A stretch of DNA of 64,000 bases from Phycisphaerales bacterium (GCA_044223975.1 JBGALI010000012.1:38422-102421), one strand, 5' to 3'. Shown: positions 17,350-41,952, counted from the stretch's first letter. Notes: generated by a model from the sequence alone, not told the origin. A program made the numbers and translations.

Positions 17350-17357
17350 GGTCAACC

Positions 17358-18482: not shown

Positions 18483-18486
18483 CGAC

Positions 18487-21400
18487 ATGAACTTCTCCGA
18501 AACCTGGATCCGCCGCCCCGTCGCAACCACGCTGGTGATGCTGGCGCTGCTGGTGTTCGGATGGATGTCCTACCGAACGCTGCCGGTCAGCGACCTGCCC
18601 AACGTGGACTTTCCGACCATTCAGGTGACGGCCTCGCTGCCGGGAGCGTCCCCGTCCACGATGGCCTCAAGCGTGGCCACGCCGCTGGAGCGCGAATTCT
18701 CGACGATCGCGGGCATCGACTCGATGTCGTCGTCGAGCCTGCTGGGCTCGACGCAGATCACGCTCCAGTTCGCGCTCGACCGCAGCATCGACGCGGCCGC
18801 GCAGGACGTGCAGGCCGCGATCGCGCGGACCGCCAACCGCCTGCCGCCGGAGATGACCAGCCCGCCGTCGTACAAGAAGGTAAACCCCGCGGACCAGCCC
18901 GTGCTCTTCCTGGCGGTCACGAGCCCGACGCTGCCGCTCTATACGATCGACGAGTACGCCGAGACCATCATGAGCCAGCGCATCTCGACCGTGAGCGGCG
19001 TGGCTCAGGTCGTGGTGTACGGCTCGCAGAAATACGCCGTGCGCGTGCAGATGCGCCCCGAGGATCTGGCCAGCAAGGGCATCGGGATCGACGAGGTCGC
19101 CAAGGCGGTCGAGTCGATCAACACCAACCAGCCCACCGGCGTTCTGTACGGCGATCACCAGGCCCTGACGATCGATTCCAACGGGCAGCTCATGGACGCC
19201 AACGCGTACCGGCGCGCCATCGTGGCCTACCGCAACGGCAATCCCGTGCGGCTCGAGCAGCTTGGGCGCATCGTCGACAGCGTCGAGAACGACAAGACCG
19301 CAGCGTGGTACTCCGGGCAGCGCGGCGTGATCCTGGCGGTGCAGCGCCAGCCGGGGACGAACACCGTCGCGGTGGTGGACGCGATCCGCCAGCTTCTTCC
19401 CAGCTTCCGCGAGCAGCTCCCGGCGTCGGTCTCGATCGACACGCTCTACGACCGGTCTGTCTCCATCCGGGCGTCCGTCTCGGACGTGAAGTTCACGCTC
19501 GTGCTCACCCTCGGCCTGGTGGTGATGGTGATCTTCCTGTTCTTGCGTAACGTTCGTGCGACACTCATCCCCAGCCTGGCCATGCCGCTGGCGATCGTGG
19601 GCACCTTCGCCGTCATGAAGGTGCTGGGGTTCAGCCTCGACAATCTGTCGCTGATGGCCCTGACCCTCTGCGTCGGGTTCGTCGTCGACGACGCGATCGT
19701 CGTGCTTGAGAACATCGTGCGCCACATCGAGATGGGCAAGACGCCCATGCAGGCGGCCCTCGAGGGATCGCGCGAGATCGGCTTCACCGTCGTCTCGATG
19801 ACCATCTCCCTGGTGGCCGTGTTCATCCCGGTGCTGTTCATGGGCGGTCTGCTCGGGCGCCTGCTCAACGAATTCGCGGTGACGATCGCGGTGGCGATCC
19901 TGCTGTCGGGCGTGGTGTCGCTGACGCTCACGCCCACGATGGCCGCTCGCCTTCTCCGGCCCGGGCGCGAGGCCGACGCCAAGCACGGGTGGCTGTTCCG
20001 CGCCATCGAGTCGGTGTTCGATGCCACACTGCACGTCTACGACCGCACCCTGCGCTGGAACCTCCGCCACAAGTCCCTGATGGCCGTGTTCTCCCTCGCG
20101 GTGCTCGCGGGGACCGTCTACCTCTTCAACAAGGTGCCCAAGGGCTTCCTGCCTCTCGAGGACCAGGGCCGCATCTTCATCCAGACCGAGGCCGCCGAGG
20201 GAACCTCGTTCGATGGGATGGTCCGCTACCAGCAGGCCGTTGCCGACGTCGTGTCAAAGCACCCCGACGTCGAGGCCTTCATGTCCAGCATCGGCACGCG
20301 CGGCGGGCAGGCCACGGGCATCAACACCGGCACGCTTTTCCTCAAGCTCCGCGACAAGCCAGCGCGGACCAAGTCGGTCGACGAGCTCATCCAGGAGCTG
20401 CGCCCCAAGGTCGCCGAGGTCCCCGGCGTCCGCGCGTTCATGCAGAACCCCCCCACCATCCGCATCGGCGGCCAGCTCACCAAGAGCCAGTACCAGTACA
20501 CGCTCCAGAGCCCCGACACGGCCGAGCTGTACACGGCCACGCCCCTGCTGGTCGACCTGCTCCGCAAGGCCCCCGGATTCCAGGACGTCACCTCGGACGT
20601 GCAGCTCAACAACCCGCAGCTCACGGTCTCGATCGACCGCGACCGTGCCGCCACGCTCGGCGTCACGCCCCAGCAGGTCGAGCTCGCCCTGGCCAGCAGC
20701 TTCGGCTCGCGCCAGATCTCGACGATCTACGCGCCCAACAACGACTACCAGGTCATCCTCGAGCTCGAGCCGCAGTACCAGCGCGACCCGTCGTCGCTGT
20801 CCTTGCTCTACATCCGCTCGACGAGCGGACACCTGATCCCGCTCGACGCCGTCGCGACGTTCGGCAGGTCGGTCGGCCCCCTCACGGTCAACCACGCCGG
20901 GCAGTTGCCGGCCGTGACCGTCTCGTTCAACCTCGCTCCCGGCGTGTCGCTCGGCGAAGCGGTGGCGCAGGTCGAGCGTGCCGCGGCAGAAGTTCTGCCC
21001 GCGACGGTCATCAAGAGCTTCCAGGGCAGCGCCCAGGTGTTTCAGTCGAGCATCCAGGGGCTGGGGGTGCTGCTGCTGGTCGCGATCCTGGTGACCTACG
21101 GCGTGATGGGAGTGCTCTACGAGAGCTTCATCCACCCGCTGACCATCCTGTCCGCGCTCCCGTTCGCCGGGTTCGGCGCCCTCGCGACGCTCATGCTCTT
21201 CCACGTCGAGATGAGCATCTACGCGTTCGTGGGCGTCATCATGCTGGTCGGGCTGGTCAAGAAGAACGGTATCATGATGGTGGATTTCGCGATCGAGGTG
21301 CAGCGTCGCGAGTCCCTCGAACCGATTGAGGCGATTCACCGCGCGTGCGTCGTGCGGTTCCGCCCCATCATGATGACCACGATGGCCGCGCTCATGGGCA

Positions 21401-21639
21401 CGCTCCCCATCGCCCTTGGCGTCGGCGCGGGCGCCGAAAGCCGCCGCCCGCTCGGCCTGGCGGTGGTGGGCGGCCTGCTCTTCTCGCAGCTGGTCACGCT
21501 CTACGCCACACCGGTCTTCTACCTCTGGATGGAGCGTCTGCGAACGCTGGGGTCGCGGCGCCGCGCACCAACGGCCGTGGCCTTCCAGGACGCCGCAGCC
21601 GCAGGCGCACAACCGCGCACGGCGACCGCCGCGTCGTAA
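18487..21639 (+). CDS. RND efflux transporter, HAE1 (AcrB/MexB-like) family
   Basis: 1050 aa with 12-TM AcrB architecture and a typical N-terminus (NFSETWIRRPVATTLVMLALLVFG). No outer-membrane factor gene is adjacent. Confidence 0.9.
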   Translation: MNFSETWIRRPVATTLVMLALLVFGWMSYRTLPVSDLPNVDFPTIQVTASLPGASPSTMASSVATPLEREFSTIAGIDSMSSSSLLGSTQITLQFALDRSIDAAAQDVQAAIARTANRLPPEMTSPPSYKKVNPADQPVLFLAVTSPTLPLYTIDEYAETIMSQRISTVSGVAQVVVYGSQKYAVRVQMRPEDLASKGIGIDEVAKAVESINTNQPTGVLYGDHQALTIDSNGQLMDANAYRRAIVAYRNGNPVRLEQLGRIVDSVENDKTAAWYSGQRGVILAVQRQPGTNTVAVVDAIRQLLPSFREQLPASVSIDTLYDRSVSIRASVSDVKFTLVLTLGLVVMVIFLFLRNVRATLIPSLAMPLAIVGTFAVMKVLGFSLDNLSLMALTLCVGFVVDDAIVVLENIVRHIEMGKTPMQAALEGSREIGFTVVSMTISLVAVFIPVLFMGGLLGRLLNEFAVTIAVAILLSGVVSLTLTPTMAARLLRPGREADAKHGWLFRAIESVFDATLHVYDRTLRWNLRHKSLMAVFSLAVLAGTVYLFNKVPKGFLPLEDQGRIFIQTEAAEGTSFDGMVRYQQAVADVVSKHPDVEAFMSSIGTRGGQATGINTGTLFLKLRDKPARTKSVDELIQELRPKVAEVPGVRAFMQNPPTIRIGGQLTKSQYQYTLQSPDTAELYTATPLLVDLLRKAPGFQDVTSDVQLNNPQLTVSIDRDRAATLGVTPQQVELALASSFGSRQISTIYAPNNDYQVILELEPQYQRDPSSLSLLYIRSTSGHLIPLDAVATFGRSVGPLTVNHAGQLPAVTVSFNLAPGVSLGEAVAQVERAAAEVLPATVIKSFQGSAQVFQSSIQGLGVLLLVAILVTYGVMGVLYESFIHPLTILSALPFAGFGALATLMLFHVEMSIYAFVGVIMLVGLVKKNGIMMVDFAIEVQRRESLEPIEAIHRACVVRFRPIMMTTMAALMGTLPIALGVGAGAESRRPLGLAVVGGLLFSQLVTLYATPVFYLWMERLRTLGSRRRAPTAVAFQDAAAAGAQPRTATAAS

Positions 21640-22014
21640 TCAAGAGACCCGCGGCCCACGACTCGACCTCCCCGGACGCGCGGAAGGGGCGGCGCCATCG
21701 ACCACCGTGCCTTGAGATGTCGAACTGGCAAAGCCTGCGCTACAGAAGAAAAGGACCCGGGCCGCGCGCCCGCGCCGCGGGGGACGCGGCGCGGCAATTC
21801 TCCATTCAAAATCAACCTCGACGACGACCGGCCTTGGCCCTTCTGCCGTCGGGATTGACCACACCACTACTTGCGTACCTCTCCCACGTGCCGGCTGCAC
21901 GCGGTGCATTCTGCGGTAAACTCCCCCGTCCAAGTCTCCCAGGACGGGGGCCCCCCTTGGCGATCGTGCGATCACCGTTTCGCCGAGGAGTAGTGAGGAT
22001 GAACTCGCTCTGGG

Positions 22015-23763
22015 TCAGGGAGCGCTACAACGCGCCAATCCCCCACATGGAAGTGGCGCGTCGATCCTCAATCCATCTCCATGCCGCGGCATCCGCGGCC
22101 GGTTGAATTGACTCTGGAATCGCTTTCTTCCGGAACGTGCCCGGACACCGATCTCCTCCCCACTTTGGGGTTGATTCCTAGACGCATCGAAGCCTGTACC
22201 ACCCTCACAGGGCGGCCGCACAGGCCTTACGACGACATGCGACCCAGAGGCGCCGATACGACATGAAATGGAGACTTCATTTGGCCGCCCAGCCTCAAGG
22301 TCAGGCCAGGCCCGCGCACCATCGCCGTCACGCGCCGCCCCTTTTGTGCTGGAGAGCGGCGTGAGCCGCGGACAGCCCCCGGCTACCCTCCGACTGTCAC
22401 ATTTTCGGAGGGATGCAGACGGCACGGTGACACCCTGAACCAACGCCAAGAATCGGTCATAGAGGCCCTGTAGCTCAGCGGTTAGAGCAGGCGACTCATA
22501 AGCTCGTCCGGGCATTCGGACGAGAGAAGCAAGTTTCGGCGAGGACTCGCCAAGTGTTGAAGTGGCATCACCTTGCGGCGCGTTCGCTTCCGCTCCCTGC
22601 TTCTCCCTGTACCTAGATGTAGACGAGTGCTGATGCGCTTTCTGATGCGCTTCGCCCCCGGGAGCGGCGGCGGCAGCCGCGGAAAGCATTCCGCCCTTGT
22701 TCATCGCGTAGTGTTTCTGCTGGACCGTGATGCTGTGGCCGATCGCGTCTGCCGCCTCGTGCTGCGGGAACGTGTCGAGCCAATCGGTTTCGATGCTCTG
22801 CCGCAGCGATTGGAACGTCTTTGGCCATCGCTTCACGCCCGCGCGGGCCGCGGCTTCCTGGATGGTCCGGGCCATGTTGTTTGTGCTGTGCGGGATAAGG
22901 CGAGACTGTTTCTCGGGCGCGGCGTGGTAGGCGGCCTGGAGCAAAGCGAGCAGCTTTGGGAACACTGGCACTGTGCGCGTCTGTCCGGTCTTGGGCGCGT
23001 AGACGGTGATCGCGTTGGTCTTCCAGTTCATTTTGTCCCATGTCAGGATGTGGGTCTCGCTGGGCACGCGAAGCCCGGCATGTCGCGCCAACCCGAAGAG
23101 AAGCCGCCAGTCCGGACCTGGGAGTTCGTCAAGCACTTTGTCAGCATCGGCGAGGGACACGTAGTGCTTAGCCCCAGCGAGCGCCGCGGAGTCCAGCTTA
23201 CGGAACGGGTCGGCAGGGAGGATTTCAAGCTCTTTGGTGGCGACGGCAAGTAGGGCCTTCGCATTGCGGGCGTGGAGACGGATCGTCACTTCCTTCAAGC
23301 CTTCGGCCTGTAGGCTCCGGCGCCACGCTGCCGCATCGGCCGGGGTGAGCGCGTCGATGGGGGGATTGGCCGTGAAATGGTCGCGCAATCGTCTTGCCGT
23401 CTGCCGAAGCAGGCGGCGGCTTCCGGGCTTCAAGTCGGCACGCTTGTTTCGCAGCGCGATGGCGAGAAACGTAACGAGCCGGGGCGACCCTCCCTGCCAG
23501 TGCTTCGGCGCCTTGGCCTTGGCGAGTCCGGCCTTCACCATGCGGGCGTGGATCGTCTCGTCAACGCCTGCAAGCCACGCCGCTGTGGCTGGGCTCAACG
23601 CGTAGTTCGCGGCCCTGGAGCCGAGAATGTCGTCGATTCGACGCTGGTATTCCTCCGCTGTGCGATACGTGACCTTCCCAAGCCGAAGCCACTGGCGGAC
23701 TCCGGCCGGGGAGGGAAAGAAGGCAATGGCGTAGGACTTGCCGATCTTGACGATGCTGCTCAT
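22015..23763 (-). CDS. Tyrosine-type site-specific integrase. The listed ORF runs on without a stop across attL, so the real C-terminus is uncertain.
   Basis: Catalytic-domain residues in order (ARHAGLRVPSE; HSTNNMART; IGHSITVQQKHYAMN with the Tyr). The ORF continues 3' of the HY motif through the reverse complement of the tRNA fragment (YESPALTAELQG) into the chromosomal flank. Confidence 0.8.
   Translation of the reverse strand: MSSIVKIGKSYAIAFFPSPAGVRQWLRLGKVTYRTAEEYQRRIDDILGSRAANYALSPATAAWLAGVDETIHARMVKAGLAKAKAPKHWQGGSPRLVTFLAIALRNKRADLKPGSRRLLRQTARRLRDHFTANPPIDALTPADAAAWRRSLQAEGLKEVTIRLHARNAKALLAVATKELEILPADPFRKLDSAALAGAKHYVSLADADKVLDELPGPDWRLLFGLARHAGLRVPSETHILTWDKMNWKTNAITVYAPKTGQTRTVPVFPKLLALLQAAYHAAPEKQSRLIPHSTNNMARTIQEAAARAGVKRWPKTFQSLRQSIETDWLDTFPQHEAADAIGHSITVQQKHYAMNKGGMLSAAAAAAPGGEAHQKAHQHSSTSRYREKQGAEANAPQGDATSTLGESSPKLASLVRMPGRAYESPALTAELQGLYDRFLALVQGVTVPSASLRKCDSRRVAGGCPRLTPLSSTKGAARDGDGARAWPDLEAGRPNEVSISCRIGASGSHVVVRPVRPPCEGGTGFDASRNQPQSGEEIGVRARSGRKRFQSQFNRPRMPRHGDGLRIDAPLPCGGLARCSAP
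22464..22501 (+). repeat. attL: 38-nt copy of the 5' half of tRNA-Met (through the anticodon loop)
   Basis: GGCCCTGTAGCTCAGCGGTTAGAGCAGGCGACTCATAA is identical to 30386..30423. The sequence diverges immediately afterwards and no T-arm follows. Confidence 0.9.
22642..22661 (+). repeat. TGATGCGC-TTTC-TGATGCGC motif (left end of island)
   Basis: Exact 20-mer, repeated at 30333..30352 in the same orientation. Its reverse complement occurs at 26209..26228 with a CTTC spacer. Confidence 0.85.
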
Positions 23764-23978
23764 GACTTCCCCTTCCGCTTGGCGATGGCCGCGGGAAACG
23801 TGATCTTCGCCCCGAGTGCCGCGAGGATGGCGTCGGCGCTTGTGAGGCTCAAATCCCCATCCCCCCGAAGGAACCGGGCCACGCTCGTTTCAATTACTCC
23901 GCTTCGCTTGGCAACGGCGTAGCCCGTGAGCCCCTGCCGTTTCACTTCGGCGCGAATTCGGTCGGCGAGTGACTTCAT
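23760..23978 (-). CDS. XRE-family (Cro/CI-type) HTH transcriptional regulator
   Basis: 72 aa: MKSLADRIRAEVKRQGLTGYAVAKRSGVIETSVARFLRGDGDLSLTSADAILAALG. Its stop overlaps the int start (ATGA). It is divergent from alpA. Confidence 0.75.
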   Translation of the reverse strand: MKSLADRIRAEVKRQGLTGYAVAKRSGVIETSVARFLRGDGDLSLTSADAILAALGAKITFPAAIAKRKGKS

Positions 23979-24001
23979 GGCATCACGATACAAGCAACTT
24001 G

Positions 24002-24019
24002 GCACGCTGTCAAGCGTGC
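24002..24019. promoter_or_regulatory. 7-bp inverted repeat GCACGCT-GTCA-AGCGTGC in the xre/alpA divergent intergenic region (candidate operator)
   Basis: Perfect palindrome about 25 nt upstream of the xre start codon (23978) and about 125 nt upstream of alpA. Confidence 0.45.
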
Positions 24020-24142
24020 TAGTACGGACTTCCTTGCCAATCTTCCGAACTCGGCTTGGCTTTGAGTGGACAGAGCGCAAAAGGGGTCGATATTGGATGT
24101 GGACGCTGCCCTTTGCGGCTTCCTTCACTTGGAGACTGAAAC

Positions 24143-24403
24143 ATGCGAGAAGGACACGGCAGCGGCGCGGACTTGGATTCTGGCCTTTGGCTTCCCGGCG
24201 AAGCAGCGCGGTTCTTGAAGATCAGCACGCGGACGCTGTTCGCGTTAGAGAGCAAAGGAAAGGTCCGTTCGGTGCGGTTCGGCCGCAGCGTCCGCTACCA
24301 CCCGGCCGATGTGCGGGACTTTGTGTCCCAGCATCGTCGGCACGAGCCCCGCGAGCCTGTTGCTGTCCACAACTGTGGAAGCGTGGCCAGCAACAAGGGC
24401 TAA
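24143..24403 (+). CDS. AlpA/excisionase-family (MerR-like HTH_17) DNA-binding protein
   Basis: LPGEAARFLKISTRTLFALESKGKVRSVRFGRSVRYHPADVRDFV, with a GGAGA RBS 8 nt upstream of the ATG. Confidence 0.75.
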   Translation: MREGHGSGADLDSGLWLPGEAARFLKISTRTLFALESKGKVRSVRFGRSVRYHPADVRDFVSQHRRHEPREPVAVHNCGSVASNKG

Positions 24404-24415
24404 AGCGCCACGGCT

Positions 24416-25816
24416 GTGGCAAGGCGAGGGATTCAATTGAGCGAAGACAAGGCGATGGGCGCGGGAGCGGCTTCGGTTGATCGTGCGGAGCAAATCGGGC
24501 GGCTCGCTGCCGTGCTGTTTGAGCCGATGGACTGGGTAGAAGTTCGCACAGTGTGGCCAGACCGCTCGGCCGGTTCGTCGCGGTGGTGCCGAGCAAACGA
24601 GATGGCATCGGCCGAGATGGTCGACTGGATGGGGGCCCAGAACGCGCGGGGACTTGGCATCTTCTACGGCGTGAACCCTCGCAAGCGAAGTGGCGGCAGC
24701 ACGGGCGCCGATGTGGCCCTGGCACGGTGCGTGTTCGCGGACTTTGACAACGGCACCGACGTAGCGACCGCCCGCGCCAAGATTCAGGACGTGGGACTTC
24801 CCGCCGCGACGGCAATCGTCGGGAGCGGGCACGGAGTTCATGTGTACTGGCGGCTAGACGAGCCGCTTGCAGACTTGGAGCGCGCCAAGGCCATCCAGAA
24901 GGGCATCGCCGCACACGCGGGGTCGGACGCGAAAGTTTTCGACGCGCCGCGAATCCTCCGCGTCCCCGGATTCCTGAACACCAAGCTCCCACACGCTCCC
25001 GTTGTGCTCATCGAATCTGACGCGGGCAGGACCTATCCACTCGCGGAGTTTCCGGGGCATGACAAGCCCTTCTCAAAGGGCGCGAGTGCGCTTGTACCAT
25101 CAGTGCCATCGGTAGCATCGGGTGGGGATGGGACTGATGGGACTGATGGGACTGATGGGACTGATGGGACTGATGGTACAAGCCCACCCCGCTCCCTGAT
25201 GCACGATCCCCGAGTCGTGGACGCCATCGACGCATGGGCCCTCACGGCGTTCGGTCAACGGCGTGCACGACTCTGGGGCTTAGTGACTTCTCTCAAGAAC
25301 ATCCCGGGCATGGAATCTTCGACTGACATGGACCTTCAGCCTGTCGTCATGGCGTGGCTGGGCAAGAACATGGCTTTCGTCGAGTCCACAGACCCCCGCG
25401 TGACAATCGCGGACCTGGAGGAATGCGTGTCGAGATATGACCCCGCCAAGTTCAACCAGTGCATCGGGAACGCGTACGCGTGGGCCCTGACGCAACCGCC
25501 GCACCCGCTGCTGGTCGACAACATCGTTTCCGAGCGCGCGACGCTGGCAAGGATGTTCGAATTTCTCCATCGCTGGCACTCAAAGGACGGAGTGTTCTGG
25601 GCGGGACAGTCGCGACTCGCCGAGCCGTTCCGCGTATCCCAGCAACTCATGGCACTTTGGATCAAAGGGCTAATTAGGCTGGGCATTGTGAAGGTCGAAG
25701 AGAAGGGAACTCGGCGCCGCGTGGTTGATGGGAAGGTCGTGCCCGCGCGGGCCACGACGTACCGATACCTTTTGCCGATCGACAACACGGCCGCGCCCGC
25801 CGCCGCGGCGGCCTAA
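24416..25816 (+). CDS. Primase-polymerase (archaeo-eukaryotic primase superfamily) replication protein with C-terminal accessory domain
   Basis: AEP motifs in order: DFD (VFADFDNGTD), SGHGVHVYW, RVPGFLNTK. An internal (DGT)5 linker is encoded by a 9-bp tandem repeat. The start is GTG 24416 or ATG 24455. Confidence 0.75.
   Translation: MARRGIQLSEDKAMGAGAASVDRAEQIGRLAAVLFEPMDWVEVRTVWPDRSAGSSRWCRANEMASAEMVDWMGAQNARGLGIFYGVNPRKRSGGSTGADVALARCVFADFDNGTDVATARAKIQDVGLPAATAIVGSGHGVHVYWRLDEPLADLERAKAIQKGIAAHAGSDAKVFDAPRILRVPGFLNTKLPHAPVVLIESDAGRTYPLAEFPGHDKPFSKGASALVPSVPSVASGGDGTDGTDGTDGTDGTDGTSPPRSLMHDPRVVDAIDAWALTAFGQRRARLWGLVTSLKNIPGMESSTDMDLQPVVMAWLGKNMAFVESTDPRVTIADLEECVSRYDPAKFNQCIGNAYAWALTQPPHPLLVDNIVSERATLARMFEFLHRWHSKDGVFWAGQSRLAEPFRVSQQLMALWIKGLIRLGIVKVEEKGTRRRVVDGKVVPARATTYRYLLPIDNTAAPAAAAA
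25127..25180 (+). repeat. 9-bp tandem repeat (GATGGGACT x5, plus one degenerate copy) inside the primase-polymerase gene
   Basis: Perfect head-to-tail copies at 25127, 25136, 25145, 25154 and 25163, with a sixth copy GATGGTACA. It stays in frame and encodes GDGTDGTDGTDGTDGTDGT. Confidence 0.9.
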
Positions 25817-26082
25817 GTGCCCACGCCATCGCATCAGGTGTCCCGGCGGACGAATCCCGCCACGCCATGCCGTGTATTGCCCTAACGAAACCACAGGAAG
25901 TCGCAAGAAGAAGGGGAACGATTCCTGGCTTGCCACGGCCCGGGCCGGAGCGATGGCGATGGCCATTGCCTCTAGGGGTCTGGCACTTGCGAGCAAGTCA
26001 AGCGGTCAGCACCGGTCCAGACAGACGCGTCGGTTGCTATGCAGGGTCTCTTCACCTTGCCCGCGGCGTTGCCGGTGCCACG

Positions 26083-26720
26083 CGTCCACAGTTGTGGATG
26101 TTTCGACGGTCGAAACATTCACCCGACGACCCATAGTCTCCTGTCACGCTCCCAGAATGCGGCCGCACGACCCCGTCAACGCTGTTTCCTCTCGTCCCCG
26201 AGTCGGCGGCGCATCACTTCGCGCATCACTCGCGGGAGCTTCCACCCCCATCCCGTGCGCCATTCCATGCGCCATGCGAGCGTAAACCACTGTGAATCAA
26301 GGCCCGACACTCGGCTAGGCTGGCCGCGTGCGTGCGCGTGGCGTTGCTGGGCGTTGGTGGGCGTGGTGGTGGCCGTGGCCACGGCGCCCGCGTTGCGTGG
26401 TCCTGGCCGTGCTGGCCGTGGCCGTGGCGCCGCGAGCCCGGGACGATGGTGGTGGAACACGCGCGCCGTCGCGTGCGTCGGCGCGGGCGCGGGCGACCCC
26501 CACGGGGGGAAGCGGCTCGGCGACCATCTATCAACGAGCCCTCGCAATTTTCTGCAACAAAAGCACAAGGGGTCGACTTGAAATCGACTATCGACGGGTA
26601 CGCTGCTTCCGCGCCGCACTCTCCGCAGTTGTGGACGCAATGTTTCGACCGTCGAAACACTGCCGCCCCTTTGCAATCGTCATCGTCCGTCGGCAATGTT
26701 TCGGCGTCGAAACATTGCCC
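26083..26720. promoter_or_regulatory. Putative replication origin / protein-binding region: three copies of a 20-28-bp palindrome (ATGTTTCGAC-N-GTCGAAACAT) plus short direct repeats and a G-rich tract
   Basis: Palindromes at 26098..26118, 26638..26663 and 26693..26720. The first two share the leader CAGTTGTGGA. GCGCATCA-CTTC-GCGCATCA lies at 26209..26228. No convincing ORF covers about 1 kb downstream of the primase-polymerase gene. Confidence 0.6.
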
Positions 26721-26923
26721 CCCACCCGCTCCCCTTGCCTTGGCCGCCGGTCGTCGCTTCGCCTCGAAGATCGGCGGCCTTGCTCGTTCCTTTCCGCTGC
26801 GCGACTTGGCCCTAAGCGGGCGCCGCGTGGCGTCGTCTTCGTCGCTTCCGCGCCAGCGTGCTGCCCTTGCTGGCGCGGAAGTTTTTCCCCTTTCACGTCG
26901 GCATCGGCCGACACGGAGTCACA

Positions 26924-27112
26924 ATGTCCGAGACGAATACCGCAAAGCCGTTCACGTCCGCCGCGGAGCGCGATGCCGCGTTCAGAAGCCCAAAGTACGC
27001 GCCTGAGCGGCCCAACGGATCGGGTCCCAATCCGCAGCACGACGCTGCGTATCGGGCCGAAGTCCTGGCACGCATGGCCGCCACGGAAGCCACCGGGAGG
27101 AAGCTCTCTTGA
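26924..27112 (+). CDS. Hypothetical protein (62 aa)
   Basis: ATG behind a GGAG RBS. Its stop overlaps the TTG start of the next ORF (TTGA). Confidence 0.4.
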   Translation: MSETNTAKPFTSAAERDAAFRSPKYAPERPNGSGPNPQHDAAYRAEVLARMAATEATGRKLS

Positions 27113-27636
27113 ACGAACCCACCACCACCACCACCACCTCCCCCGTTTCCCCTGGAGACCTTGCAATCGCTCTCCGGGATCGCCATCGCTCGGGCCTGGT
27201 CGAAGCACTCAAGACCTACAGGGCCGCTGCCGCCGCGGGCGACGTTACTGCGATGGCCAAGTCCGCGGACCAACTCGGACTGACTGACGATGAGATCGTG
27301 AGCGACGCCACGGCGTTGGCGACGGTGTCTGAACTTGACGCATCCATTGCGGGCTTTGCCACCGACTTGGCAAATCTGCGCGACGCTGCCGACATGGACC
27401 GTGAAGACGCTGCTTTGGCGGAGCAGATGGCCATCGCCACCCGCCCGATGGCAGAGAAGCGCGCGGCGATTGCGACGGAGCGGGCCAAGATCGCCAAGTT
27501 GAAGGAAGAGACGAACGGGCTTGAAGAGGCCCTGCGGAGCGCCCGCCGCGGTTCACCCCGACTCTTCGAACCCGACATCACACTCGCCGCGGCCCGCAGC
27601 ACGCCCCTCGGTGCGGCCTACTTCGAACGGAGCTGA
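27109..27636 (+). CDS. Hypothetical protein (175 aa, poly-Thr N-terminus, predicted helical/coiled-coil)
   Basis: TTG start behind a GGGAGGAAG RBS, with coherent non-repetitive sequence after TTTTTT. It is translationally coupled to the upstream ORF. Confidence 0.5.
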   Translation: MNEPTTTTTTSPVSPGDLAIALRDRHRSGLVEALKTYRAAAAAGDVTAMAKSADQLGLTDDEIVSDATALATVSELDASIAGFATDLANLRDAADMDREDAALAEQMAIATRPMAEKRAAIATERAKIAKLKEETNGLEEALRSARRGSPRLFEPDITLAAARSTPLGAAYFERS

Positions 27637-27643
27637 AATCTAC

Positions 27644-28000
27644 ATGACCAAGAACACCAAGCCCCCGCCCACCCAACGCGCGCGGATGCTCGAACTTTTC
27701 AACCGTCTGGTTGACCTACTCCTGACGCTGCTTCGCCGCGGCCGTCCGATGGTCGGCCCCGACGGCGCGATCATGGTCGACGCCAACGGTAAGGCGATTT
27801 ACAAGGACATCGGCGCGGCTGATATGGCCGTGTGCGTGTCGCTGCTTCGCCTGGCTGGCCTTCGGGCCACGCTCAATGCGCCGCAGACAGAGCTTGCCGC
27901 GATGATGGAACGCGCCAGAGCGGCCGGGTGGCGCTCGCCCGAGTCGGTGCCCCCGGCCGCGGCGGACGGCGCCGGGGAGGACGACGATGCCGAGGACTGA
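27644..28000 (+). CDS. Hypothetical protein (118 aa)
   Basis: ATG at 27644. The stop overlaps the start of the next gene. Confidence 0.45.
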   Translation: MTKNTKPPPTQRARMLELFNRLVDLLLTLLRRGRPMVGPDGAIMVDANGKAIYKDIGAADMAVCVSLLRLAGLRATLNAPQTELAAMMERARAAGWRSPESVPPAAADGAGEDDDAED

Positions 28001-28385
28001 CCTTCCGCGCGATCATCGCAAGCCGATCCCTCCCGAAAATCGGCTCCTGCTCGATGCCGACCACGTCGCACGCTTGCTCTCTGTCAGTCGCTACACCATC
28101 TTGGCGTGGCGGAAGCAAGGACTCATGCCCCAGCCCGTCGAGTTCTCCGCTGGCACCGTTTTGTGGAGAGTCCGCGAGATCGAGGCTTGGGTGGTGGCCT
28201 CGTGCCCCGCCATGGCCGATTGGACCTGGCGTCCCACGGTTTCGGCGCGACTTGACGCCTACATCCGTTGTCAGTCCCGGGAGATCAAGGACATGCAAGA
28301 ATCCCTGGACGCGGCACTCCGCGCGAAGGCCGCAGGCGCGACGACGATCCCGGTCTCGCTCGCTCCCGACTCGCCCACTCTGTAA
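27987..28385 (+). CDS. Second AlpA/excisionase-family HTH protein
   Basis: DADHVARLLSVSRYTILAWRKQGLMPQPVEFSAGTVLWRVREIEAWV matches the AlpA-type winged-helix pattern. Confidence 0.65.
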   Translation: MPRTDLPRDHRKPIPPENRLLLDADHVARLLSVSRYTILAWRKQGLMPQPVEFSAGTVLWRVREIEAWVVASCPAMADWTWRPTVSARLDAYIRCQSREIKDMQESLDAALRAKAAGATTIPVSLAPDSPTL

Positions 28386-28437
28386 TTGCCGCGGCGGCCT
28401 GTTCGCCTACTGGCCTTCTACATCGCCGCGTTCGCAT

Positions 28438-28475
28438 TTGCCCCGCCCTGGCGAAAGCCGGGGGCGGGGTTTTTC
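28438..28475 (+). terminator. Rho-independent terminator
   Basis: GCCCCGCCC - loop - GGGGCGGGG followed by TTTTT, immediately after the second alpA-like gene. Confidence 0.7.
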
Positions 28476-28560
28476 GGTTGTGTCCCTTGGTGTCCGCATA
28501 TTGCTGGTTGTTCGGACTTGTGATCCGTGGTAGCCTGCGCCCTTTGGGGGGGCACGCAAA

Positions 28561-28794
28561 ATGAACGCGAAGAACGTCGGAGCCTACTTGGCCGTGGGTG
28601 GCGGCGCGCTCTTGTACCTTGCTTTCGTCGGCTCGCTCGTGACGGGCTGTGGCTGGGTGCTGTTCTACTCCGAATGGCACTGGTTCGCCAAGGTGATGGC
28701 CGCGATCATCCTGTTGCCGTTCCTGCCCCACGCGATTGGCTTGCTGGTGACCCTCGTTACGCTGGCAGGCAGCATCGGAAAGCGACCGGGCTAG
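28561..28794 (+). CDS. Small membrane protein (77 aa, two predicted TM helices)
   Basis: Hydrophobic segments LAVGGGALLYLAFVGSLV and VMAAIILLPFLPHAIGLLVTLVTLA. Confidence 0.45.
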   Translation: MNAKNVGAYLAVGGGALLYLAFVGSLVTGCGWVLFYSEWHWFAKVMAAIILLPFLPHAIGLLVTLVTLAGSIGKRPG

Positions 28795-29348
28795 TGCGGG
28801 CCCGCGTGGTCATTGGGCGCCGCCGTCAACCGTTCCACCAAAGATTTCGGCTCGGGCGCTGGATCGCAATACTCCACACCCCAAGTAGCGATGGTCAAAT
28901 CTTTGCCGCGGTAGACCAGAATCTCGCGCTTCCGGCTGAAAACCCACAGGCTCACGGCGCCGCCCTGGCGAAGCAGCTGACTCATGAACGCCGATCCCTG
29001 AGCGCTAAGCACAAACTCGGCGCAATCGTTCGTCTCAATGGCGTCCGCGCGCCCGTGGATGTGCATCCCATACTGTTGAACGACGCCATTCGTTGACACC
29101 CCGCGCATCACGGCACGAGGTTCTGGAATCGGGTTGTTGCCCGTGTTGGTGGCAATCGCGCGAATTGTCCGTTCGCCACCTTCTTCGTGCATGGCAATTT
29201 GAACGCTGACGCGGAGCCGCTTCGCCTCTTGTTCGCGTTGTTTGTCCCGCCGCTCAATGCCAAATTCGATGGCCCGCAACACGGCGAGACTTCCAGAAAT
29301 GACCGTACCCGTCAAGCCGAGATAGAAGGCGGCATCATCCATGGGCAA
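28791..29348 (-). CDS. Hypothetical protein with an N-terminal TM helix (185 aa); candidate island cargo
   Basis: N-terminus AAFYLGLTGTVISGSLAVLRAI. The remainder is soluble and I recognise no family. Confidence 0.45.
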   Translation of the reverse strand: MPMDDAAFYLGLTGTVISGSLAVLRAIEFGIERRDKQREQEAKRLRVSVQIAMHEEGGERTIRAIATNTGNNPIPEPRAVMRGVSTNGVVQQYGMHIHGRADAIETNDCAEFVLSAQGSAFMSQLLRQGGAVSLWVFSRKREILVYRGKDLTIATWGVEYCDPAPEPKSLVERLTAAPNDHAGPH

Positions 29349-29387
29349 TGCTAGTTGCTCTGGAATCGCTGCGGCAGAGCGTTCGGT

Positions 29388-29960
29388 TCACTCCTGCCGC
29401 ACTCGTGCCCCACCCTGCCGCCCCCATGCCACCCTAAGCACTTGCACCGCCTGAACCACCTGCCGTGCCGTGCAACCGAGCGAAGCCGCTGCGTGGGCTG
29501 TACCGCCTGTGCGTACCACCATCGCCACACGCTCGGCCGTGGTCTCGCTGGCAATGCCCAGCACACTCGCCACGCTCGCGCTCGTGTCCCTTGCCCGCTC
29601 GTGCGGCTCGCGCTGGCCCAGTTGCTCGGGCGGTTCGCGGTGCTGGCTCCGGCGCCGACTCGCGCCACGCTCGCGGTGCCAGTTGTCCAGCACGCGGCGC
29701 CGCGCGTTGCGAGCCACGCACCTGGCGAAGTCGTCCCCGTCGAATCGGTCGGCGATGGCATTGCACACGAGCCACGCCTCGCCGAAGTGCTCGGCCGCGG
29801 CCGTGCCCGTGGCCTTGCCGACTTGCCGCGCTATCGACTCGGCCAGCGCGAGCACTTCGGCCCGCGTGACTTGGCCCGTGGCCATGGTCTCTCCCCTTGC
29901 CCCTGAATGGCCCGTGGCACGCTCTCGCACGCCCGGGCCGTTGGATGGTCGGTCAATCAC
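29388..29960 (-). CDS. Sigma-70 family (ECF-like) sigma factor
   Basis: Region-2-like DFARCVARNARRRVLDNWHRE (compare F..W...IARN...D..RR) and region-4-like AERVAMVVRTGGTAHAAASLGCTARQVVQAV. The start is probably ATG near 29884; the frame is ambiguous by 1 nt in my reading. Confidence 0.5.
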   Translation of the reverse strand: MIDRPSNGPGVRERATGHSGARGETMATGQVTRAEVLALAESIARQVGKATGTAAAEHFGEAWLVCNAIADRFDGDDFARCVARNARRRVLDNWHRERGASRRRSQHREPPEQLGQREPHERARDTSASVASVLGIASETTAERVAMVVRTGGTAHAAASLGCTARQVVQAVQVLRVAWGRQGGARVRQE

Positions 29961-30163
29961 GCGAAGGCAAGGCGGCCCCCTGGCGTGACACGGGCGCGGT
30001 ACGTCGCTACGACGGCGTCGCGCTCGCGGAGCGTGACGGTCCGGCCGTCGATGTTGACGACGAAGAACCCCCCTTGCCCGTGATGAGCGACGGCAGCGTT
30101 AGCGATGGTGGAATCGCGGAACGATGCGAGGGCGCGGCGCGTGGTGGACTTGGACATGTTCAA
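29957..30163 (-). CDS. Hypothetical small protein (68 aa), first gene of the minus-strand cargo operon
   Basis: ATG start. Its stop overlaps the sigma-factor start. Confidence 0.35.
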   Translation of the reverse strand: MNMSKSTTRRALASFRDSTIANAAVAHHGQGGFFVVNIDGRTVTLRERDAVVATYRARVTPGGRLAFA

Positions 30164-30332
30164 AGCCTTTCTGGTCCGGCGAGTGTGAGTGATGCCGAGC
30201 CCGTGCCGGTGCCGGGTCGGCGGACGGTCATTGAGCAGCGATGGCGAGTATCCGGGCGCGGGTCTCCGGGGGGAGGCTCGGCCATGCCTCGGCTACCCTT
30301 CGGAGTTCAGGGTCTTGGAGTGCCGTGAGAAG

Positions 30333-30352
30333 TGATGCGCTTTCTGATGCGC
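30333..30352 (+). repeat. TGATGCGC-TTTC-TGATGCGC motif (right end of island, 33 nt from the tRNA junction)
   Basis: Identical to 22642..22661. Confidence 0.85.
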
Positions 30353-30385
30353 CTTCCCGCGACAATCCGAGAAACTGGGCAAAAA

Positions 30386-30458
30386 GGCCCTGTAGCTCAG
30401 CGGTTAGAGCAGGCGACTCATAATCGCTTGGTCCCGGGTTCGAATCCCGGCGGGGCCA
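30386..30458 (+). tRNA. tRNA-Met (anticodon CAT; elongator-type or tRNA-Ile2/lysidine not distinguishable)
   Basis: GGCCCTG/TA/GCTC-AGCGGTTA-GAGC/A/GGCGA-CTCATAA-TCGCT/TGGTC/CCGGG-TTCGAAT-CCCGG/CGGGGCC/A. Confidence 0.9.
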
Positions 30459-30985
30459 TTCGGCACAGAAGCGCACCGACGCGCAAGCCCTAGCACGGGC
30501 GACGGTTGCGGGATCGGGCCAAATCCGACCGAATGCGCCCGACCAAGCGATTGCAGCGCCGTGCGCTATCGTGCGCGGCGGTGCTGCAGCGCAATTTGCA
30601 GCGTGCTGCTGTCGCAGCGTTTGCGACAGCAGTCAAGTCCGCACGGCGCGTGGTGACGGCAGGCGTTCGGCAACGCACGCCTGTTGAACTCATTCCGAAC
30701 GGCTCGCACGTATACAATGTCGCGTTCGCACAGTTCGGGAGAAGAGCGATGCTCAATATCCTGACTCTTGAACTCCCTTGTCCGGTCGGCTCGTCCTTGC
30801 CCAAGCACAAGGCCGAGGGGCAGCCGCTCCCGCCGCCCTAGCGGAACCTCCCGCAACTGCAGACCTGACGCGGCCAGAATCCACATTCTGAGTACCCAAC
30901 GGTGACCTCGCAGGAGTTCACGCGCGCGGACTGTCCCCACGGAGATGCCGCGCGCTCGCATACCCACCGTGCGCCGAGACATTCC

Positions 30986-33016
30986 ATGATGTTCATTCTC
31001 CAGAATCTTCTTCTTTCCACCCTGGCCGCGATCGGCCTCTTCTTCGCGATTGTCCTGCTCGTCGGCTTCCGGCGCGTGCCCAACAACGGCGCCGGCATTG
31101 TCGAGAAGCGATTCACCTTCAAGGGCTCGATCCCCGGCGGCTTCATGGCGCTCAACGGAGAAGCCGGCTTCCAGCCCGAACTCCTCCGCGGCGGTCTCCA
31201 CTGGCTCATGCCCGTGCAGTACCGCGTCCACATCGTGCCGCTGGTGACGATCCCGCAGAACAAGGTCGGCTATGTCTTCGCCCGCGACGGCCGGCCCCTT
31301 GAGCCGACCCAAGCCCTTGCCTCCAACATCGAGGCCCGCTCCTACGAAGACGTCCGCGCCTTCCTCGCCGCCGACGGCCAGCGCGGCCCGCAGCGTCAGA
31401 TCCTGCGCGAAGGCACCTACGCCATCAACCTCGCCCAGTTCGTCGTCATCACCGAGGGCAAGACCTACTACCTCCCGCTCTCGCGCGACGAGCGCACCGT
31501 GTTCGACGAAATGGCCGGGCTCATCGAGGACCGCGCGGGCTTTGATCCCATCGTCATCCGCGGCGAGAACGATCTGGTCGGCGTCGTCACCGTCCACGAC
31601 GGACCCGCGCTCGCCCAAGGGGAAATCATCGCGCCGATCGTCGGCGACCCCGCGCGCCCCGACGCCTCCCACAACAACTTCCAGGACGCCGAGAAATTCC
31701 TCGCCGCCGGCGGGCGCCGCGGCCGCCAGCTCCAGGTCCTCGTCGACGGCACCTACTACGTCAACCGCCTCTTCGCCACCGTCGAGTTCATCCCCAAGAC
31801 CGTCGTCGAGGTCGGCTACGTCGGCGTCGTCGTCTCCTACACCGGCGAAAAGGGCGCGGACCTCTCCGGCTCCGAGTACTCCCACGGCGAACTGGTCAAG
31901 CAGGGCCAGCGCGGCGTGTGGAGCGAGGCCCTCCTCCCCGGCAAGTACGCTTTCAACACCTACGCGGGGAAGGTCATCCAGGTGCCCACCACCAACTTCC
32001 TCCTCAAGTGGGTCGGCGGCGAGGTCGGCGAGCACCGCTTCGACGAGCACCTCGCCGAGGTCTCCCTCATCACCAAGGACGCCTTCGAGCCCAGCCTGCC
32101 GCTGAGCGTGGTCGTGCACATCGACTACCGCAAGGCCCCGCTGGTGATCCAGCGCTTCGGCGACATCCAGCGTCTGGTCGAGCAGACCCTCGACCCCATG
32201 GTTTCGGCCTACTTCAAGAACGTCGCCCAGACCCGCACGCTCATCCAGCTCCTCCAGGACCGCAGCGCCATCCAGGACCAGGCCCGCACCGAGATGCGCG
32301 AACGCTTCGCACGCTACAACCTCGAGCTCGAGGAGGTCCTCATCGGCACGCCCAAGAGCGGCGCCTCCGCCAAGGGCGGCGACCAGCGCCTCGAGCAGAT
32401 CCTCGAACAGCTCCGCGCCCGGCAGGTTGCCGAGGAGCGCATCATGACCTACGCCCAGCAGGAGAAGGCCGCCAAGCAGGAGCGCGAGCTGCGCCAGGCC
32501 GAGGCCGTCGCGGCCCAGCAGTCCAAGCTCACCGAATCAGAGGTCTCGATCGCGATCCAGACCAACCAGGGCCGCGCCGAATACCAGCGCTCGCTTCAGG
32601 AGGCCGCGCGCGTCAAGGCCATGGCCGAGGCCGAGGCCAGCAAGGTCCGAATGCTCGCGGAGGCCGAGGCCGAGAAGGCCGCGCGCGTCGGTATTGGACA
32701 GGCGATGGCGGTCGAAGAGCAGGTCCGCGCCTACGGCGGCCCCGTGTATCAGCTCACGCAGCAGGTACTGAACCGCTTCGCGCAGGCCATCGAGCAGTCG
32801 GGCGCCGACGTGGTTCCCAAGATCGTGATGGGCGGTGGCCCCGGCGGTGGCGGCAACATGATGGAGTCGCTGCTTGCCATGCTGCTCTCCGAGCGCATGC
32901 TCCAGATGACAGCGAGTTCGTCGCCCCCGGGTGCCGAGGTCGCGGCGATCAAGGGGCAACTTCTCGAGGGAATACGAGCGACTCCGAAGGCGAACGGTTC
33001 GCCGGTACCTACCTGA
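30986..33016 (+). CDS. SPFH/band-7 (flotillin-like) membrane protein with long C-terminal coiled-coil
   Basis: N-terminal TM (MMFILQNLLLSTLAAIGLFFAIVLLVGF) followed by an SPFH-like region. The C-terminal Ala/Glu/Gln-rich repeats (EAVAAQQSKLTESEVSIAIQ...KAMAEAEASKVRMLAEAEAEKAAR) are typical of flotillins. Confidence 0.7.
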   Translation: MMFILQNLLLSTLAAIGLFFAIVLLVGFRRVPNNGAGIVEKRFTFKGSIPGGFMALNGEAGFQPELLRGGLHWLMPVQYRVHIVPLVTIPQNKVGYVFARDGRPLEPTQALASNIEARSYEDVRAFLAADGQRGPQRQILREGTYAINLAQFVVITEGKTYYLPLSRDERTVFDEMAGLIEDRAGFDPIVIRGENDLVGVVTVHDGPALAQGEIIAPIVGDPARPDASHNNFQDAEKFLAAGGRRGRQLQVLVDGTYYVNRLFATVEFIPKTVVEVGYVGVVVSYTGEKGADLSGSEYSHGELVKQGQRGVWSEALLPGKYAFNTYAGKVIQVPTTNFLLKWVGGEVGEHRFDEHLAEVSLITKDAFEPSLPLSVVVHIDYRKAPLVIQRFGDIQRLVEQTLDPMVSAYFKNVAQTRTLIQLLQDRSAIQDQARTEMRERFARYNLELEEVLIGTPKSGASAKGGDQRLEQILEQLRARQVAEERIMTYAQQEKAAKQERELRQAEAVAAQQSKLTESEVSIAIQTNQGRAEYQRSLQEAARVKAMAEAEASKVRMLAEAEAEKAARVGIGQAMAVEEQVRAYGGPVYQLTQQVLNRFAQAIEQSGADVVPKIVMGGGPGGGGNMMESLLAMLLSERMLQMTASSSPPGAEVAAIKGQLLEGIRATPKANGSPVPT

Positions 33017-35459: not shown

Positions 35460-35839
35460 AGCGGCATCACCGTGCCGGTCGCTGCATCAACCAAGTGGCC
35501 CAACACCTCGCTGATCCGGAGACTTGCCCAGCACGTCAGCGCAAACGGCGCCCAATGGGAACGCCGATGGGGTGGAGAGGTTCGCGAGAGAGGCCGACGA
35601 GCGCCCACACCGGGGGTCCGACGGCATCTCAGAAGAGAGCCGGGGCGCGGATGCCTTGGCGCGCTGGTGACACGATCTGCTGTAACAGCGGGCCGCCTGC
35701 GCGCTCCCCTCGCAAAAGCTGGGTCTCGCTCCGCGGATCACGGCGCTACCTGGGGCTATCGCTCTGGGGGGTGTGCAGAGAGCCATGCTCGCGCACGCCG
35801 ATTTCGGGGATAAACGGTACAACTATTTGAATATTCATC

Positions 35840-38162: not shown

Positions 38163-40484
<2,322 letters not shown>

Positions 40485-40492
40485 GAGATTCC

Positions 40493-41910: not shown

Positions 41911-41952
41911 TTCGTCGCGGCAGGGCAATCCGGCGCCCGAGGACGGAGGAGC

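Follow-up and report, generated by a model that had tools for sequence, protein, structure and literature searches.

The integrase gene of a 7,922-bp island in the genome of a Phycisphaerales bacterium is predicted to span the element's own attachment site (attP), such that integration severs a conserved C-terminal motif (EAWPxL..RAxILAI) from the enzyme. The island lies within a 64,000-nucleotide stretch of DNA (GCA_044223975.1, JBGALI010000012.1:38422-102421), which as a whole is referred to below as the window. Most likely it is an intact-looking integrative element that inserts site-specifically and brings a replication module of its own. The family to which it belongs consists of small (~6-11 kb) elements of Phycisphaerales and other Planctomycetota that carry an integrase gene (int), an HTH_17 gene and a primase gene. 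The severing of the conserved end of int by insertion is the most unusual feature of the element.

Island boundaries and target tRNA

ARAGORN identifies two tRNAs in the window, one of which has a CAT anticodon (30386-30458, plus strand) and is supported by the only Rfam match (72 bits). Positions 1-38 of this tRNA and the A preceding them (30385-30423) are duplicated at 22463-22501 with 39/39 identity, and the two copies are spaced 7,922 nt apart. A 39-nt exact repeat cannot have arisen by chance within 64 kb. Because identity stops at the final base of the anticodon loop, at its 3' edge, the crossover was presumably located in or near this loop. The following features are defined by the repeat.

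22502-30423: island interval, 7,922 bp, bracketed by the 39-nt repeat.
22463..22501, plus strand: attL core, the displaced chromosomal tRNA 5' half with its native upstream region retained; assigned from the repeat identity.
30385..30423, plus strand: attR core, the island-derived tRNA 5' half joined to the chromosomal 3' half.
30386..30458, plus strand: intact CAT-anticodon tRNA, labeled Met by ARAGORN.
Predicted attP junction (30385, core, 22502): ...GGGCAAAAAGGCCCTGTAGCTCAGCGGTTAGAGCAGGCGACTCATAA joined to GCTCGTCCGGGCATTCGG...
Predicted restored attB: ...GGTCATAGAGGCCC...CTCATAA joined to TCGCTTGGTCCCGGG...

The island also differs from its surroundings in composition. Its GC content is 64.5%, compared with 68.7% for the left flank and 66.3% for the right flank, and GC content at third codon positions (GC3) is 0.61-0.86 for island genes versus 0.90-0.96 for host genes.

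The initial annotation described a tRNA-Met gene split by the island, with 38 nt of its 5' part repeated around ~7.9 kb. The repeat is real, and amounts to 39 nt when the base before the tRNA is included. The gene is not split, however, since one end of the island has a whole copy and the other end a displaced fragment of its 5' part. The identification as tRNA-Met also requires revision. The tRNA shares 87-89% identity across all 73 nt with an E. coli gene annotated as tRNA-Ile in RefSeq, which ARAGORN labels Met(cat) as well. Moreover, it carries a G1-C72 pair and C4-G69/C5-G68, which we take to fit tRNA-Ile2 (the lysidine-containing species) and not initiator or elongator Met. The target is probably tRNA-Ile2(CAU).

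A 13-nt match, CGGCTACCCTYCG, occurs at 22376-22390 and 30286-30300, ~75-85 nt upstream of both tRNA 5' halves. We considered that the island might mimic the native upstream region of the tRNA in this way, and dropped the idea; relatives do not conserve the match upstream of their tRNA, and it may be due to chance.

The integrase gene spans the predicted attP

Two segments of the integrase gene are separated in the integrated state.

22015..23763, minus strand: tyrosine integrase open reading frame (ORF) as read in the integrated state, 582 aa; PF00589; phrog_1, E 8e-24.
30228..30385, minus strand: severed int 3' end, with the motif encoded at 30240-30284; overlaps the region upstream of the intact tRNA.

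The conserved recombinase part of the protein is encoded from 23763 to ~22707 and ends at the catalytic Tyr352; residues R232, K258, R321, H343 and Y352 are invariant in the family alignment (A2). No stop codon follows before attL. Instead, the ORF reads antisense through the tRNA half (..YESPALTAELQGL..) and continues to 22015 in flanking DNA, with a GC3 coding signal that weakens beyond ~22650. When the circular form is reconstructed, int stays in frame for 52 further codons to give a protein of 485 aa that ends with ..DPELRRVAEAWPSLPPETRARILAIAAQ before the stop codon.

Equivalent reconstructions were made for two islands from relatives. In L051 the circle encodes an integrase of 534 aa with the same motif (..GAWLSACPVRLTPEARMAILAVL..), and in L052 one of 530 aa (..ERWVSTCPIPLDPDTRAALLRLL..), the L052 frame being correct only with the island-borne copy of the half-tRNA, in which one base is different. 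Forms of the gene in which the tail is uninterrupted also exist. In P0182/L216, just a tRNA 3' fragment is present within the ORF, followed by ..DVWPNLSAAVRARILAII.. in the same frame. Two phage-like IMG/VR contigs, L218 (43 kb) and L219 (64 kb), encode a 520-aa integrase of the same family (at 798-2360 and 9896-11458, respectively) that ends with ..PELGSLIEAWPDLSDEDRAAILEI.. and has the motif intact. L219 additionally has PHROG matches to exonuclease, methyltransferase and virion-structural families, and it is possible that L218 and L219 represent helpers or ancestors of the small islands. A BLASTP alignment between the reconstructed Int tail of the window element and the L219 integrase crosses the core, with 27/69 identities (E 5e-6). 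Because the three in-frame reconstructions share the motif, and because uninterrupted forms exist in L216, L218 and L219, we conclude that the predicted integrase ORF spans attP.

A hidden Markov model (HMM) of the motif was run over 2.8 Mb of fetched DNA, and the sole additional match was in L188 (E 0.03), a locus outside the training set. L188 is a 7.3-kb metagenome contig (1-7294) holding a complete 7,077-bp island with the usual geometry of tRNA-gene islands (see below), in which 29 nt of the tRNA 3' end are repeated and which encodes an 861-aa primase-helicase and the integrase. Its motif is located just past the far repeat, at the position predicted by the attP-spanning model. Going by its conservation, the Int tail may be functionally important.

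In the mechanism we propose, the tyrosine integrase would insert the island at the anticodon loop of the CAT-anticodon tRNA gene downstream of TrpA-GSIII (GSIII, glutamine synthetase III), with attP carrying the tRNA 5' half. The circle would encode the 485-aa Int with its conserved tail. Upon integration, the tail segment would be shifted 7.9 kb away and Int would gain an unrelated tail, a logic similar to that of phage Mx8.

Integrase genes that span attP are known from Mx8 and from Sulfolobus spindle-shaped viruses (SSV) (PMC4383910). For Mx8, integration supplies a new int 3' end that changes the specificity of the enzyme (PMC6070905). The Mx8 IntP/IntX system resembles the window element in that attP lies inside the int 3' end, integration into a tRNA gene replaces the integrase C-terminus and the host has high GC content; the participation of an HTH (helix-turn-helix) protein (uoi) in Mx8 excision is a further likeness (PMC6070905). 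By analogy, severing may bias the direction of recombination or alter the activity of Int. The two systems nonetheless differ. Mx8 is a complete phage whose integration duplicates the tRNA 3' part, whereas the island duplicates the 5' half, and the piece severed from the window integrase carries a short motif conserved family-wide. We also found no sequence relation to Mx8 Int, as a tblastn search against 50,697 phage records that include Mx8 gave no match.

Candidate arm-type sites flank the core

Three tandem pairs of TGATGCGC with a period of 12 nt occur in the window, each of them inside the island; such pairs were seen in 0 of 300 Markov simulations.

22631..22650, plus strand: candidate P' arm-type sites, TGATGCGC twice (22631/22643), in the int 3' coding region and encoding AHQKAHQH.
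30333..30352, plus strand: candidate P arm-type sites, TGATGCGC twice (30333/30345), 34-53 nt upstream of the island-borne tRNA half.
26209..26228, minus strand: third TGATGCGC pair (26209/26221), inverted, in an ORF-free region far from the att core.

The pair at 30333..30352 is positioned between the core and the int tail motif. Similar arrangements are found in relatives. L188 has GCGCAGCGC pairs at the two matching relative positions (its layout at 165-197 is like that of 30333..30352), and L051 and L052 have GTAGCAC pairs on the island side together with GCGCAGCAG/ACGCAGCAG pairs in int. In addition, a peptide repeat of the AQRNAQRN type occurs at the corresponding place in the integrase family alignment. 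The 12-nt-period tandem repeats that flank the core are likely arm-type integrase sites, some of them embedded in coding DNA, and with these candidates attP would measure roughly 240-250 bp.

Occupancy of the insertion site and mirror geometry

Relatives of the genes on either side of the island, a flotillin-like gene on the right and GSIII on the left, are found in metagenome-assembled genomes of Phycisphaerales/Planctomycetota at ~75-80% identity. A scan of genome contigs for the flotillin-like gene (30902-33016) produced 50 loci, and in none of them is the tRNA or any left-flank gene found close by. With synteny lost on the right side, comparison with empty sites was therefore made through GSIII. 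In L221 (GCA_046350515.1) and L224, the same tRNA lies ~100-160 nt or less downstream of TrpA-GSIII, the genes beyond it are unrelated, and no integrase is present. The site is likewise unoccupied in L222, which has one additional gene between TrpA-GSIII and the tRNA.

In contrast to these empty sites, the TrpA-GSIII locus of L051 and that of L052/L053 are occupied by other islands of 10.7 kb and ~6 kb, respectively. In L051 and L052, tRNA positions 1-40 are duplicated beside the integrase 3' end (a 40-nt repeat in L051), and the intact tRNA is located at the opposite end. These islands have only int in common with the window island (38-41% identity), plus a weak HTH_17 match in L051, and each of the three contains int, an HTH_17 gene and a primase-type gene. 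Because relatives show either empty sites or different islands at this position, the TrpA-GSIII-tRNA site is variably occupied by related yet distinct elements. For the same reason, namely the empty sites and the different islands with 5'-half duplication, the window island is a real site-specific insertion. The initial annotation had proposed such a comparison and had asked whether the same genes might be found at the locus without a duplicated tRNA half, or the key genes might lack relatives in mobile DNA. Neither situation was encountered: sites are empty or carry other islands with the duplication, and homologues of the integrase, the HTH_17 protein and the primase domain co-occur in other mobile contexts.

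In most islands found in tRNA genes (tDNA), the element brings the 3' part of the tRNA and its integrase adjoins the intact gene. The window, L051 and L052 islands instead bring the tRNA 5' half. This mirror geometry is uncommon, with a 5' tDNA fragment present in 159 of 3,919 Islander islands, or ~4% (PMC4383910). The usual geometry is observed for other members of the integrase family, including L136 (tRNA-Glu), L197 (tRNA-Val), L214 (CAT-anticodon tRNA) and L188. Islander calls an island when an intact tDNA is accompanied by a cognate end fragment in the same orientation and on the correct side, with an integrase inside and a size of 2-200 kb (PMC4383910). The window presents an intact tDNA, a 5' fragment upstream on the same strand, int inside and a length of 7.9 kb. 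Like the 5'-fragment islands of the Islander collection, it has the displaced upstream fragment in the same orientation, the integrase inside and an anticodon-loop sublocation. However, that class is defined by geometry alone, and PMC4383910 reports nothing on an integrase gene that overlaps the upstream region of the replacement tRNA.

The mirror geometry has a consequence for expression of the target gene. The rebuilt tRNA consists of a 5' half from the island and a 3' half from the chromosome, and its transcription must start in island DNA. The island therefore must supply the promoter. The orphaned chromosomal 5' half adjoins int, to which it is antisense, and keeps its native upstream region.

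Two other observations concern this site and this integrase family. Between GSIII and attL, at 16684-22462, the window holds a TetR-MFP-RND (membrane fusion protein, resistance-nodulation-division) efflux operon and ~820 nt of apparently non-coding DNA, and the gap from GSIII to the tRNA or its fragment is ~90-160 nt in L221, L224, L051 and L053. This stretch may have been inserted separately and earlier at the same hotspot. L214 (1-11398) is a larger island of usual geometry, with an XRE-int operon of the same family beside a full CAT-anticodon tRNA, and carries HsdM and a HATPase_c protein that look like defense cargo.

Regulators, replicase and accessory genes

High GC content inflates the raw ORF list, and coding calls were made from codon-position GC content and HMM searches. 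The gene layout given in the initial annotation is confirmed throughout: int, divergent XRE and AlpA-type genes with a palindrome between them (24002-24019), an AEP (archaeo-eukaryotic primase) gene, ~1 kb of ORF-free DNA, a run of small genes that includes a second AlpA-like gene (27987-28385) and is followed by a clean terminator (28440-28474), and three minus-strand genes beside the tRNA. The control region and its regulators are as follows.

23760..23975, minus strand: XRE-family HTH gene, 71 aa from the ATG at 23975; PF01381 HTH_3, 23.3 bits; matches PHROG transcriptional repressor families.
23985..24094: divergent control region with two facing promoter-like sites and a palindrome.
24143..24403, plus strand: HTH_17 protein 1, 86 aa; PF12728, 27.7 bits (cut-off 27); phrog_66, 'excisionase and transcriptional regulator'.

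The XRE stop codon overlaps the int start codon through the sequence ATGA (23760-23763), and on account of this overlap we treat the two genes as one operon. Consensus matches place one promoter-like site ahead of xre-int (24013-23985, minus strand, TTGACA-17-TATCGT) and another ahead of alpA-rep (24067-24094, plus strand). The palindrome GCACGCTgtcaAGCGTGC (7-4-7, GCACGCT-gtca-AGCGTGC) overlaps the TTGACA -35 element. HTH_17 protein 1 is of the AlpA/excisionase type and is a candidate recombination directionality factor, activator or both; L136-L138 and L051 carry homologues of it immediately ahead of the primase gene. The XRE-Int operon would thus face the HTH_17-Rep operon across a palindromic operator, with derepression yielding both the excision factor and the replicase (Rep).

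The replication module comprises Rep and two repeat-bearing regions.

24416..25816, plus strand: Rep, 466 aa; PF16793 RepB_primase/AEP; phrog_2478.
25086..25187: 9-mer cluster in the rep linker, perfect GATGGGACT x5.6 facing ~2.5 imperfect inverted copies; encodes (GTD)n.
25817..26923: ORF-free, repeat-rich region of ~1.1 kb with no codon-position GC signal.

An AlphaFold (AF2) model of Rep (pLDDT, the predicted local distance difference test, 79) has an AEP primase-polymerase domain at ~aa 22-215, a disordered (GTD)n linker at aa 220-258, a helical domain at ~260-390 and a C-terminal winged helix at ~393-451. Foldseek matches the AEP domain to the cyanophage S-2L PrimPol (6zp9, E 1e-9) and to RSF1010 RepB' (E 1e-7), and gives weak matches of the C-terminus to winged-helix regulators and plasmid initiators. 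The catalytic AEP fold is common to Rep and these two proteins (6zp9, 3h20/3h25), with target-normalized TM-scores of 0.73-0.77 at 18-19% sequence identity. However, RepB' has a helix bundle as its C-terminal domain and S-2L PrimPol is fused to a helicase, whereas Rep ends in a winged helix.

A word-indexed search for Rep homologues returned 4 matches only, and exhaustive HMMER was used instead. Of the 6,887 relatives recovered, most are primase-helicase fusions of 750-850 aa. About 12 of the best 150 are 400-480 aa in length, align over the entire protein and have the same architecture as Rep. The more distant relatives P0003 and P0004 combine PF16793 with PF19263. Metagenomes were scanned with a 5-sequence Rep alignment, a 15-sequence alignment being too diverse.

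Two palindromes recur in and near the ORF-free region, which is a candidate origin, operator region or both. P1, TCCACARYTGTGGA, occurs at 26085-26098, at 26622-26635 and, just ahead of rep, at 24366-24379 (3 occurrences versus 0 expected). P2, ATGTTTCGAC-S-GTCGAAACAT, occurs at 26098-26118, 26640-26659 and 26694-26717. The 9-mers of the rep linker are candidates for iterons or for a slippage-prone coding repeat. Rep would bind either the recurring palindromes or the 9-mers, and would use a helicase from the host or a helper.

The remaining genes are accessory.

26924..28385, plus strand: small-gene operon of four overlapping ORFs, 26924-27112 (62 aa), 27109-27636 (175 aa), 27644-28000 (118 aa) and 27987-28385 (132 aa).
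28440..28474, plus strand: intrinsic terminator after the small-gene operon, GCCCCGCCCTGG..CCGGGGGCGGGG hairpin followed by TTTTT.
28561..28794, plus strand: hydrophobic membrane-like ORF, 77 aa, GC3 0.86; no family matches.
28791..30163, minus strand: accessory ORFs, 28791-29348 (185 aa), 29388-29960 (190 aa) and 29957-30163 (68 aa), called from coding signal.

Within the small-gene operon, family matches were obtained only for the last ORF, the second HTH_17/AlpA-like gene (phrog_66, E 1e-8; AlpA structure 8c3t in the PDB, E 0.038); its scores for PF12728 (25.2 bits) and PF05930 Phage_AlpA (20.3 bits, cut-off 21) are below the cut-offs. The terminator was read directly, a simple automated scan having missed it. 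The accessory ORFs gave nothing from PADLOC or NCBIfam at cut-off. A faint sigma-70/ECF (extracytoplasmic function) resemblance of the 190-aa ORF (TIGR02937, E 0.0075) is far below cut-off, and a single-sequence AlphaFold model of this protein was unusable (pLDDT 58).

Nature of the element

Several observations weigh against an intact element whose integrase gene spans attP. In L188, a stop codon stands immediately ahead of the tail motif in the reconstructed circular frame, and in the window the tail-coding stretch is too short to give a codon-usage signal of its own. A consensus scan of the island-derived DNA upstream of the rebuilt tRNA revealed no sigma-70-like promoter. Neither the excised circle nor the empty-site sequence of the source strain was found in metagenome contigs, where an exact scan with one degenerate pattern covering attL, attR, attB and attP gave 0 matches. 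With regard to replication, Rep has no helicase domain and the island encodes no helicase; the P1 and P2 palindromes might serve as operators, and slippage might account for the perfect 9-mers. Finally, 8 of the 12 island ORFs have no match in Pfam, PHROGs, NCBIfam, PADLOC or PDB sequences.

A helper phage is the leading, if tentative, candidate for the means by which the element moves from cell to cell. The island would then be a satellite similar to phage-inducible chromosomal islands (PICIs) or their minimalist relatives (PICMIs): a helper phage would derepress it, whereupon it would be excised, replicated and packaged in helper capsids, possibly as concatemers like those of PICMIs, with no capsid-remodeling or terminase genes of its own. 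We consider this account possible, but on the whole somewhat doubtful. PICIs are defined by five core functions (de Sousa et al. 2023, PMC10085698), three of which are present on the island, namely an integrase at one end, an HTH_17/AlpA-like regulator and a primase-type replicase. In the family and PDB sequence searches listed above, no island ORF matched a small terminase gene (terS) or a capsid-morphogenesis gene, although orphan ORFs could hide a divergent analogue of the latter. The absence of capsid and terminase genes noted in the initial annotation agrees with these searches. Its assignment of a canonical PICI layout is supported for integrase, regulator and primase but not for capsid morphogenesis and terS, which leaves at most the ambiguous 'Type C' set. 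The combination of int, AlpA and primase was excluded under that name as something that might represent satellites, other mobile elements or chance aggregates (PMC10085698), and this rejection by the authors of SatelliteFinder counts against a satellite here.

On the other hand, PICMIs consist of int, alpA and prim without packaging genes and are real satellites (PMC10803314). Because PICMIs lack packaging genes too, their absence from the island does not refute a satellite lifestyle. The trio of the window element functionally matches the minimal PICMI signature, which is non-specific for satellites. The size of 7.9 kb (6-11 kb in relatives) and the variable accessory genes also fit the three-gene core of PICMIs (PMC10803314), and the use of the same integrase family, with the same tail, by phage-like contigs points in the same direction. 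The AEP domain is present in 421 IMG/VR contigs and in mycobacteriophage primases, and no conjugation or relaxase genes were detected among the island ORFs. Conversely, viral contigs share just the N-terminal AEP domain, within a different architecture, and viral-contig scans with Rep and two small ORFs gave no close relatives. No cos/pac or other virion-related match was obtained either, and the 64-kb window contains no prophage or helper. A region at ~35.8-47.5 kb of the window was considered as a helper prophage and rejected; its large ORFs resemble response regulators and sensor kinases at their N-termini and do not look phage-like by eye, and those at 35800-45000 have GC3 values of 0.74-0.79, below those of core genes.

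Comparison with individual satellites reveals both likenesses and differences. PICMIs of the Vibrionaceae are similarly small (6.1 kb versus 7.9 kb), combine an integrase with AlpA/HTH_17 and a primase, lack capsid-remodeling and terminase genes, and have large non-coding stretches and few, fast-changing accessory genes (PMC10803314). They also often possess a small gene, 'iolg', that overlaps int by ATGA and is essential for excision (PMC10803314); the XRE gene of the window is similarly placed, an overlap that fits a satellite. Of the PICMI model genes, int (PF00589) and alpA (PF12728) are present. However, Rep, an AEP domain with a winged helix, carries PF16793 and neither of the PICMI primase markers DUF3987 (PF13148) and DUF5906 (PF19263). 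PICMIs insert beside fis, whereas the island occupies a tRNA gene downstream of GSIII, and their integrase genes do not span attP (PMC10803314). Dependence on a helper has been demonstrated for PICMI115 (PMC10803314), whereas the island, from a planctomycetotal host, is known from sequence alone. PICIs such as the S. aureus pathogenicity islands (SaPI) and those of the EcCICFT073 type share with the island the order integrase, regulator, primase/replicase and accessory genes, as well as divergent control of int and the replication operon (PMC10085698). The island differs from PICIs in being smaller, in lacking capsid morphogenesis and terS, and in having no helicase-type Rep.

An integrative mobilizable element of the 'iOriT' type, which would carry only an origin of transfer (oriT), seems improbable. 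In this case the repeat-rich 1.1-kb region would be the oriT rather than a replication origin (oriV). Many relaxase-less genomic islands carry only an oriT (bioRxiv 10.64898/2026.01.13.699239), the ORF-free region is rich in inverted repeats, and the second-best structural match of the Rep primase domain, RepB', comes from the mobilizable plasmid RSF1010. However, neither a relaxase, a coupling protein nor a known oriT was detected on the island, the window contains no conjugative element, and related integrases occur in phage-like contigs while none of the fetched loci has conjugation genes.

An immobile, decayed remnant of an L219-type temperate phage that retained its integration and early-replication genes would agree with the occurrence of the same integrase family in 43-64-kb phage-like contigs and with the preponderance of orphan ORFs, but it is very unlikely. 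The att repeats show no mismatch, every core ORF is intact and has coding signal, a PHROGs search revealed no fragments of structural genes, and independent relatives are equally small with the same core (L052, ~6 kb; L188, 7.1 kb; L051, 10.7 kb), as would be expected for a stable element type.

Significance

Some characteristics of the intact integrative element favored here are known already: islands with int, xis/alpA and primase genes in tRNA genes, the 5'-fragment geometry and the attP-spanning integrase. What is new is the combination of these features, together with a severed C-terminal motif that is conserved family-wide, in both geometries and in phages. The replicase, which joins an AEP domain to a winged helix and has no helicase, and the host phylum are likewise new. 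A full-text literature search gave no paper linking Planctomycet* with 'phage satellite', a result that is absence of evidence only. It is conceivable, though rather unlikely, that the window element, L051, L052, L188 and others constitute the first family of phage satellites from Planctomycetota or the wider PVC (Planctomycetes-Verrucomicrobia-Chlamydiae) group. Such minimal int-AlpA-primase elements would hitch-hike on temperate phages with which they share an integrase family. Integration would switch their integrase (the motif being present on the circle only), and their attP would double as the 5' half, promoter included, of an essential tRNA.

The integrase, the attP of ~240-250 bp and the tRNA target could be used to integrate DNA into the genomes of the genetically difficult Phycisphaerae, comparable to the use of Mx8 int-attP in myxobacteria. 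The mobile elements of Planctomycetota are almost unstudied, and this locus and its relatives define a recurrent family of very small integrative elements with a compact design and a three-function core. An integrase gene that is cut upon integration registers within itself whether the element is integrated or excised, an arrangement already known from Mx8 and SSV. Should the elements turn out to depend on phages, satellites would be known from a new phylum, and the recognized types would gain a minimal satellite whose AEP replicase lacks a helicase.

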